From assembly GCF_051903065.1 (NCBI RefSeq), contig NZ_CP178438.1: DNA of 64,000 nucleotides; one strand, 5' to 3'. Positions 6,145 through 6,318 of the stretch are shown in pieces. Source of the DNA: Escherichia coli. Lineage in GTDB: Bacteria > Pseudomonadota > Gammaproteobacteria > Enterobacterales > Enterobacteriaceae. The notes beneath the pieces are model-generated. The model did not search any database, was not told where the DNA came from, and saw only the letters and a list, made by a program, of their open reading frames with translations. Each line of letters opens with the position of its first letter. The first letter of the stretch is position 1. The position numbers and the translations under genes were made by a program.

Positions 6145-6318
6145 ATGGAAGATCAAAAAGCAACCAAGCCACAGGTTAAGTTCGACACAATGAAAGCATT
6201 CGCAGGTATGGGTGCTGCTGTTGAAGTTCTGATGAAGGCTGCTCCTAATGCGTTCACTCACGCTACTGTCTCTGGTAAAGAGCAGCAGGGTAAGCTTCGT
6301 CGTCGCAAAGCAGCATGA
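6145..6318 (+). CDS. small hypothetical protein (57 aa), not in the ORF track
   Basis: ATG 6145 preceded by AGGAG at 6134-6138; MEDQKATKPQVKFDTMKAFAGMGAAVEVLMKAAPNAFTHATVSGKEQQGKLRRRKAA; stop 6316-6318 then terminator. Confidence 0.5.
   Translation: MEDQKATKPQVKFDTMKAFAGMGAAVEVLMKAAPNAFTHATVSGKEQQGKLRRRKAA

Follow-up and report, generated by a model that had tools for sequence, protein, structure and literature searches.

Does the short reading frame that directly follows the PanA-PanT pair in an Escherichia coli prophage encode a protein, and if it does, is that protein part of the pair? The frame lies in a window (the whole 64,000-nucleotide stretch of E. coli DNA that was analysed) that carries the chromosomal genes lexA, dinF, yjbJ, zur, and a DUF2713 gene and then a lambdoid prophage with dusA as its integration site. 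An earlier note on this DNA described the frame as an unannotated 57-aa ORF and proposed that it could belong to the cassette as a third component. The gene order at the left end of the prophage is a displaced fragment of host dusA, PanA, a PanT-like gene, the small frame, and, on the opposite strand, an excisionase gene (xis) with which the leftward early operon begins. Only 39 nt separate the PanT stop from the start of the small frame on the same strand. The coordinates of these features are collected in the table.

RefSeq labels the equivalent of the dusA fragment 'tRNA-dihydrouridine synthase, incomplete', and this stretch aligns with E. coli O157:H7 EC4115 and with phage mEp460. The fragment retains the start codon and upstream region of dusA, and the host dusA promoter could drive transcription into prophage cargo genes in a lysogen. 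The DUF2713 gene that precedes it is closed by a strong terminator (4433-4462). The promoter-like site upstream of PanA is a consensus match alone, and such matches are no commoner in this region than in shuffled sequence. No promoter match was found in the window directly upstream of the small frame, and a terminator scan found no terminator-like site on the plus strand between PanA and 6337. PanA is named 'Panacea domain-containing protein' in RefSeq. The PanT-like protein starts 33 nt further downstream in RefSeq and is given there as 128 aa (locus L007:6600-6986). The 139-aa start is probably the correct one, as its 4-nt ATGA overlap with PanA is kept in Enterobacter, Proteus, and Pantoea homologues. 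A search of PDB sequences with PanT was uninformative.

Features of the left prophage end in the window (positions are those of the window)
Feature	Position	Strand	Remarks
Displaced host dusA 5' fragment, 40 codons and stop	4759..4881	+	left prophage junction (attL)
Cassette-specific segment (promoter-like site, PanA, PanT)	~4925..6131	+	replaces GNAT gene and leader of mEp460/O157:H7-type prophages
Sigma-70-like promoter match TTGACC, 17 nt, TAAACT	4962..4990	+	upstream of PanA
PanA, Panacea-domain (SocA-like) antitoxin, 190 aa	5117..5689	+	Pfam PF13274, E = 2.2e-19
PanT-like putative toxin, 139 aa	5686..6105	+	phrog_19071, E = 3e-31; 4-nt overlap with PanA
Shine-Dalgarno AGGAG	6134..6138	+	6-nt spacer to ATG of 57-aa ORF
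57-aa basic protein ORF	6145..6318	+	6.2 kDa, pI 10.2, family phrog_2741
Intrinsic terminator hairpin	6337..6362	both	common to convergent 57-aa ORF and xis
PrtN-type excisionase (xis)	6366..6674	-	Pfam PF11112, E = 4e-23; phrog_1300 'excisionase'

The translation of the 57-codon frame is MEDQKATKPQVKFDTMKAFAGMGAAVEVLMKAAPNAFTHATVSGKEQQGKLRRRKAA, with an ATG at 6145-6147 and a TGA at 6316-6318. The start, the ribosome-binding site (RBS), and the frame itself can be read directly from the sequence as the earlier note gave them. The note had also called the downstream terminator strong, and this is borne out by an 11-pair stem with 6 G-C pairs, a 4-nt loop, and a following T run in the terminator scan. 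The folding energy of the hairpin is -19.3 kcal/mol (z = -3.2 against shuffles). In other words, the site combines the hairpin, the U tract (UUUUUU on the plus strand), and the above-chance stability of an intrinsic terminator. Read on the minus strand, the same hairpin lies 3 nt past the stop codon of xis, and UUUUC comes after it. The 15-nt gap that had been given between stop codon and terminator needs correction, since 18 nt separate the stop codon from the stem and 21 nt separate it from the G+C core at 6340. Around the start of the frame, the RNA shows less structure than shuffled controls (z = +1.56), which is what one would expect of a translated start. The length of the frame is not significant by itself, because the first 12 kb of the window contain 130 ORFs of 30 aa or more. 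The frame stands above chance because its RBS and terminator are kept in distant relatives, its dN/dS is 0.04-0.33, and its initiation region is unstructured.

Further evidence for a gene comes from its relatives. The 57-aa protein matches PHROG family phrog_2741 significantly and from end to end (residues 1-57 on positions 1-57 of 57, E = 8.4e-36). The members of this family include gp24 of Enterobacteria phage mEp460 (YP_007112098.1) and the RefSeq proteins WP_000390072.1 and WP_000654815.1. Annotated coding sequences in phages SKA5, Lys8385Vzw, and mEp460 (gp24) are 98-100% identical to the window ORF, and the SKA5 DNA is 100% identical to it. Of 5426 complete E. coli genomes, 561 (~10%) have the protein in their RefSeq annotation, under the name 'hypothetical protein'. 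The word 'unannotated' is thus correct for the ORF track that accompanied the earlier note and incorrect for public records, which hold the frame as an annotated coding sequence in both phages and RefSeq. Homologues of 54-58 aa are present in Salmonella, Enterobacter, Atlantibacter, Cronobacter, Franconibacter, Buttiauxella, and Pseudescherichia, and likewise in Hafnia, Edwardsiella, Serratia, Plesiomonas, Brenneria, and Photorhabdus.

The homologues display the hallmarks of a conserved protein. The dN/dS range given above holds for every sufficiently divergent pair among the Enterobacterales (Nei-Gojobori method). In comparisons with Hafnia, synonymous change has reached saturation, and third codon positions make up 47 of the 97 variable columns of the alignment. 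A core, FDT..AF..MGAAVE.L.KAAP, is kept across the family while the termini vary. Relatives keep a length of 54-58 codons with indels solely in multiples of three, and GGAG or GAGG stands 6-8 nt upstream of the start in all 14 distinct copies. A terminator follows nearly all homologues, with stem sequences that are unrelated in Hafnia, Edwardsiella, and Brenneria. The conservation check in related prophages that the earlier note had proposed therefore upholds its suggestion of a real gene, since the frame is conserved, with purifying selection acting on it, over a range that reaches from E. coli as far as Photorhabdus, Brenneria, and Plesiomonas. On this comparative evidence, the ORF is confirmed as a genuine and already catalogued phage protein-coding gene.

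No function has been assigned to the family, and neither Pfam nor NCBIfam has a model for it. When the 57-aa protein was scanned against Pfam, NCBIfam (both at E <= 0.1), and PADLOC, no match was obtained, and a profile search of PDB sequences found no solved relative. A phmmer search of 1.84 billion representative proteins returned seven proteins, all close family, and no remote relatives. A search of literature and supplements (full-text accessions and the Panacea and NetFlax supplements) found nothing relevant to the ORF, and its peptide is absent from the Enterobacteriaceae microproteome supplements and from those of the E. coli O157:H7 Sakai Ribo-seq paper. The Sakai Ribo-seq data are uninformative on this ORF because Sakai has an intact dusA (NC_002695.2, 5114950-5115987) and no prophage there. 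O157:H7 EC4115 and many other O157 strains carry a degraded remnant of a GNAT-type prophage at this site. A reading of the protein as a transmembrane or type-I toxin was rejected given a maximum Kyte-Doolittle value of 1.0 in 19-residue windows, a net charge of +6, and a pI of 10.2.

With which gene does this family travel? Outside the PanA-PanT class of E. coli prophages, the upstream neighbour of the ORF is, at every locus, a 176-184 aa protein of PHROG 4350 that is 58-72% identical to mEp460 gp23 and is encoded 93-196 nt upstream. The pairing occurs in 14 genera besides Escherichia and in 358 E. coli genomes. Pairs were found from the side of the small protein in Escherichia, Salmonella, Enterobacter, Buttiauxella, Pseudescherichia, Franconibacter, Hafnia, and Photorhabdus. 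They were likewise found from the side of gp23 homologues in Edwardsiella, Serratia, Brenneria, and Plesiomonas. Furthermore, the pair occupies more than one prophage site: between the dusA attL and xis (Escherichia, Salmonella, and Plesiomonas), between the Q antiterminator and the lysis genes at the holin (Hafnia, Enterobacter, Franconibacter, Edwardsiella, and Serratia), and downstream of a cI-like repressor (Brenneria). The divergence of the two proteins is correlated (Mantel r = 0.55, p = 2e-4, 13 pairs). When modelled, the PHROG 4350 protein has a GNAT acetyltransferase fold whose structural matches include TacT2, TacT3, and AtaT, with a sequence similarity to GNAT toxins of just 7-14%. 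A profile search of PDB sequences with this partner gave spurious gp41 coiled-coil matches alone.

These loci point to a native, mobile module that consists of the GNAT gene (gp23 in mEp460), a structured spacer of 93-196 nt, the 54-58 aa gene with its own RBS, and a terminator. The spacer contains three hairpins (ttaccttaaaggtaa; ccaatcg...cgattgg; tagc...gcta) that recur across genera and were seen at L002:2818-3013 and L013:5823-6000 in our numbering of loci, and also at L011 and L018-L021. Sequence changes in these hairpins across genera look like compensatory ones. No Rfam family matches the spacer, and the spacer is not present in the window. In Hafnia prophages (L008:4150-5109; L009:4051-5109), a RelA/SpoT-domain protein that matches the PADLOC candidate defence system PDC-S33 (E = 1e-112) is encoded directly upstream of the pair. 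Defence-like cargo gathers at the Q-to-holin site, because this PDC-S33-like gene adjoins the Hafnia pair.

The window departs from this arrangement. Its copy of the ORF does not differ in sequence from those of the family, but it lacks the usual upstream GNAT neighbour, and a tblastn search of the window with gp23 did not find the GNAT gene. Homology of the window to mEp460 and to O157:H7 EC4115 extends up to ~4924, is lost over 4925-6131, and is back at 6132, two bases before the AGGAG of the ORF. The G+C content rises from 0.34 to 0.45-0.48 across this right junction (6100-6200). The counterpart of the replaced segment in mEp460/O157-type prophages is the 177-aa gp23 (WP_000956557.1) and a 196-nt spacer. 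The two arrangements divide E. coli prophages into two classes, as the PanA-PanT segment was found in 207 and the gp23-type segment in 358 complete genomes, covering essentially all 561 ORF copies. Of 80 IMG/VR loci, 38 were PanAT-type and 42 GNAT-type. The gene for the 57-aa protein stands without a GNAT partner in ~4% of complete E. coli genomes.

The most likely account of these breakpoints is that recombination between the dusA attL flank (~4924) and the RBS of the ORF (~6132) swapped the GNAT gene and its spacer for PanA-PanT. The ORF appears as a third cistron in the window because the recombination junction falls at its RBS. As the last cistron after PanA-PanT, it would be transcribed from the cassette promoter, the host dusA promoter, or both, and the PanA-PanT-ORF transcript would end at the hairpin that is also the terminator of xis. 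Co-transcription of the ORF with PanA-PanT in the window is thus probable. A separate observation concerns the other side of the ORF, where an insertion hot spot lies just downstream, at or before the terminator. In E. coli H10407 (L006:4338-5372), a CoiA-like gene lies downstream of the ORF and homology to the window stops at 6336. In one Salmonella prophage (L125:3881-4348), this place is taken by a gene for a protein with an HTH and two transmembrane segments.

How could the small protein act? It has a central helix (approximately residues 15-39) and disordered ends rich in Lys and Arg, with a net charge of +6. AlphaFold models of the protein alone show this single helix (there residues 15-37) at moderate confidence (block pLDDT 66-76, mean 64, pTM 0.30). 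The same helix reached a pLDDT of ~95, and the whole model a pTM of 0.80, in an AF2 model in which a 30-residue Gly-Ser linker joined the protein to its cognate GNAT partner, with 13 natural pairs in the alignment. This rise in pLDDT is indirect evidence and can be read as folding of the 57-aa protein upon binding to the GNAT protein. The amphipathic helix would then bind the GNAT protein and regulate or neutralise its activity. By analogy with AtaR and TacA, whose C-terminal helices hold GNAT toxins, the small protein may likewise keep the enzyme from acting. Its basic tail, which ends in -RRRKAA, possibly renders it labile. The C-terminus is kept in the family as a basic cluster followed by -KAA, -VAA, or -AVA, which we take to resemble the MuA-type ClpX recognition motif (RRKKAI).

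The known GNAT pairs with ribbon-helix-helix (RHH) antitoxins, such as AtaT-AtaR, TacT-TacA, KacT-KacA, and ItaT-ItaR, are similar in that a GNAT-fold protein of ~180 aa is paired with a small protein. Likewise, the helix of the small protein in the native module is predicted to gain order on the GNAT protein between disordered flanks. There are also clear differences. The gene order of the native module is reversed, with the GNAT gene first and the two genes 93-196 nt apart instead of overlapping, so the antitoxin-first, abutting order of the RHH pairs is not seen. The small protein has neither a ribbon-helix-helix nor any other DNA-binding domain and is a single helix in the AF2 model. A GNAT-fold gene adjoins the small gene in relatives and is missing from the window. 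The GNAT/small-protein pair therefore falls outside the AtaRT/TacAT family in its present definition.

Taken with the synteny and the breakpoints, the models make it fairly probable that the ORF is the orphaned binding partner of a prophage GNAT protein, placed beside PanAT by cassette exchange. Polymorphism in E. coli is in line with this reading. The 43 PanAT-linked copies have 8 nonsynonymous and 3 synonymous variable sites, and the 46 GNAT-linked copies have 0 and 4, respectively (Fisher p = 0.026, from few sites in a biased sample in which the E. coli GNAT class is nearly clonal). The nonsynonymous changes in the orphans include the family-invariant L29 and the C-terminal Ala-Ala. These changes suggest that the orphan ORF is drifting, its constraint relaxed by the loss of the partner.

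The same copies can be viewed differently. The ORF may be an autonomous accessory 'moron' protein with its own target in the host or phage, linked to the GNAT gene through co-transfer and functional in the window. It has its own RBS and its own terminator in all contexts, and the 93-196 nt spacer after the GNAT gene leaves room for a separate promoter. The protein persists without the GNAT gene in 207 E. coli genomes, and its reading frame is intact in all 43 of the sampled PanAT-linked loci. The cassette swap also left its RBS untouched. Intact orphans together with an RBS that is preserved exactly at the junction are also expected from selection for an independent function. The GNAT/small-protein unit does resemble phage morons (Hendrix-type 'more DNA'), in that it sits at classic accessory sites, has its own terminator, and moves between sites. 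The window differs from a moron in lacking a promoter match directly upstream of the ORF and in having half of the unit exchanged. Furthermore, the ORF occurs without the GNAT gene solely in a single PanAT lineage of E. coli and Shigella, its divergence is correlated with that of the GNAT gene, and the excess of nonsynonymous polymorphism among orphans reaches L29 and the C-terminal Ala-Ala. The dependence of helix confidence on the GNAT partner in the AF2 models would also speak against a protein that works alone. An autonomous function is thus unlikely, and the orphaned partner of a GNAT protein is the reading that we prefer.

A role of the ORF as a third PanA-PanT component, be it an accessory regulator, a chaperone, or a second antitoxin, is very improbable. 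In favour of this proposal of the earlier note, the ORF lies 39 nt past PanT on the same strand without a terminator between them, so it is probably on the same transcript, and the cassette is always accompanied by the ORF in E. coli genomes. Its position agrees with the definition used in the study of Panacea systems, where a third gene has to share the strand of the pair and lie no more than 100 nt from it, and three-gene Panacea loci exist in principle (PMC8832971). In that study, accessory third genes were present in small fractions of PanAT loci and probably had no general role in toxicity or neutralisation (PMC8832971). Homologues of PanA-PanT were found in prophages of Enterobacter, Proteus, and Pantoea (toxin identity 73%, 63%, and 56%, respectively). 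They lie between tail genes in Enterobacter, beside a tail-fibre gene in Proteus, and after cI in Pantoea. All of them consist strictly of the two genes and keep the 4-nt overlap. None of nine such loci (L111-L119) in the three contexts has an ORF homologue within 3 kb of PanA-PanT (best tblastn E > 1), so conservation with the pair in at least two species is not seen. The ORF, in contrast, has an unrelated gene upstream of it both in many genera besides Escherichia and in 358 genomes of E. coli, where its constant neighbour is the GNAT-fold gene. The homology breakpoint and the G+C step at the junction also split the ORF from the cassette. The window contains a pair (5117-6105) like the PanA-PanT of Kurata et al. 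2022 (PMC8832971), and the ORF, although less than 100 nt away on the same strand, is not kept with that pair outside the E. coli prophage lineage and belongs to another module. Sequence comparison does not support the ORF as a functional part of PanAT.

The view that the ORF is a chance frame in a 3' UTR, a terminator leader, or a small RNA has almost no chance of being right: sub-threshold Rfam matches pile up at 6267-6370 and the 18 nt between stop and hairpin are also kept among close relatives, but all Rfam matches (in scans of window positions 4300-7400 and of GNAT-type loci) are far under gathering scores and driven by the terminator hairpin on which they centre, and the low dN/dS, the saturated synonymous sites, and the kept length, triplet indels, and RBS are those of a protein-coding gene.

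A known small RNA was also considered. sRNA-17 is a 193-nt ArcA-modulated RNA of E. coli K1 RS218 that is encoded in an mEp460-like prophage (PMC7719688). The idea that it is the transcript of the ORF was rejected, since its sequence maps to ~10.47-10.66 kb of the window (~10467-10660 on the plus strand, exact at 10479-10518), which is ~4 kb away and has no relation to the ORF.

A further proposal, which goes beyond an orphaned binding partner and which we consider speculative and unlikely, is that the GNAT/small-protein pair is an undescribed toxin-antitoxin-like or defence module in reverse gene order and without a DNA-binding domain, carried by prophages of Enterobacterales. In that case the orphan would be no relic and would serve as a free-standing 'anti-addiction' or immunity factor that neutralises the GNAT protein of incoming, competing phages that target dusA.

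What does the locus mean for these prophages? For the window, the outcome is a correction: PanA-PanT is complete with its two genes, and the small ORF is not to be counted in. For the phage families, it means that two families of unknown function, phrog_4350 and phrog_2741, form an obligate gene pair, a divergent GNAT enzyme with a small helical partner, in lambdoid prophages of at least 15 genera. The pair is a testable lead and a reasonable target for experiment. If it is a toxin-antitoxin or defence module, the GNAT toxin family would gain a new type of antitoxin. If that is true, the window would hold a natural orphaned antitoxin, made by cassette exchange at a prophage attachment site.
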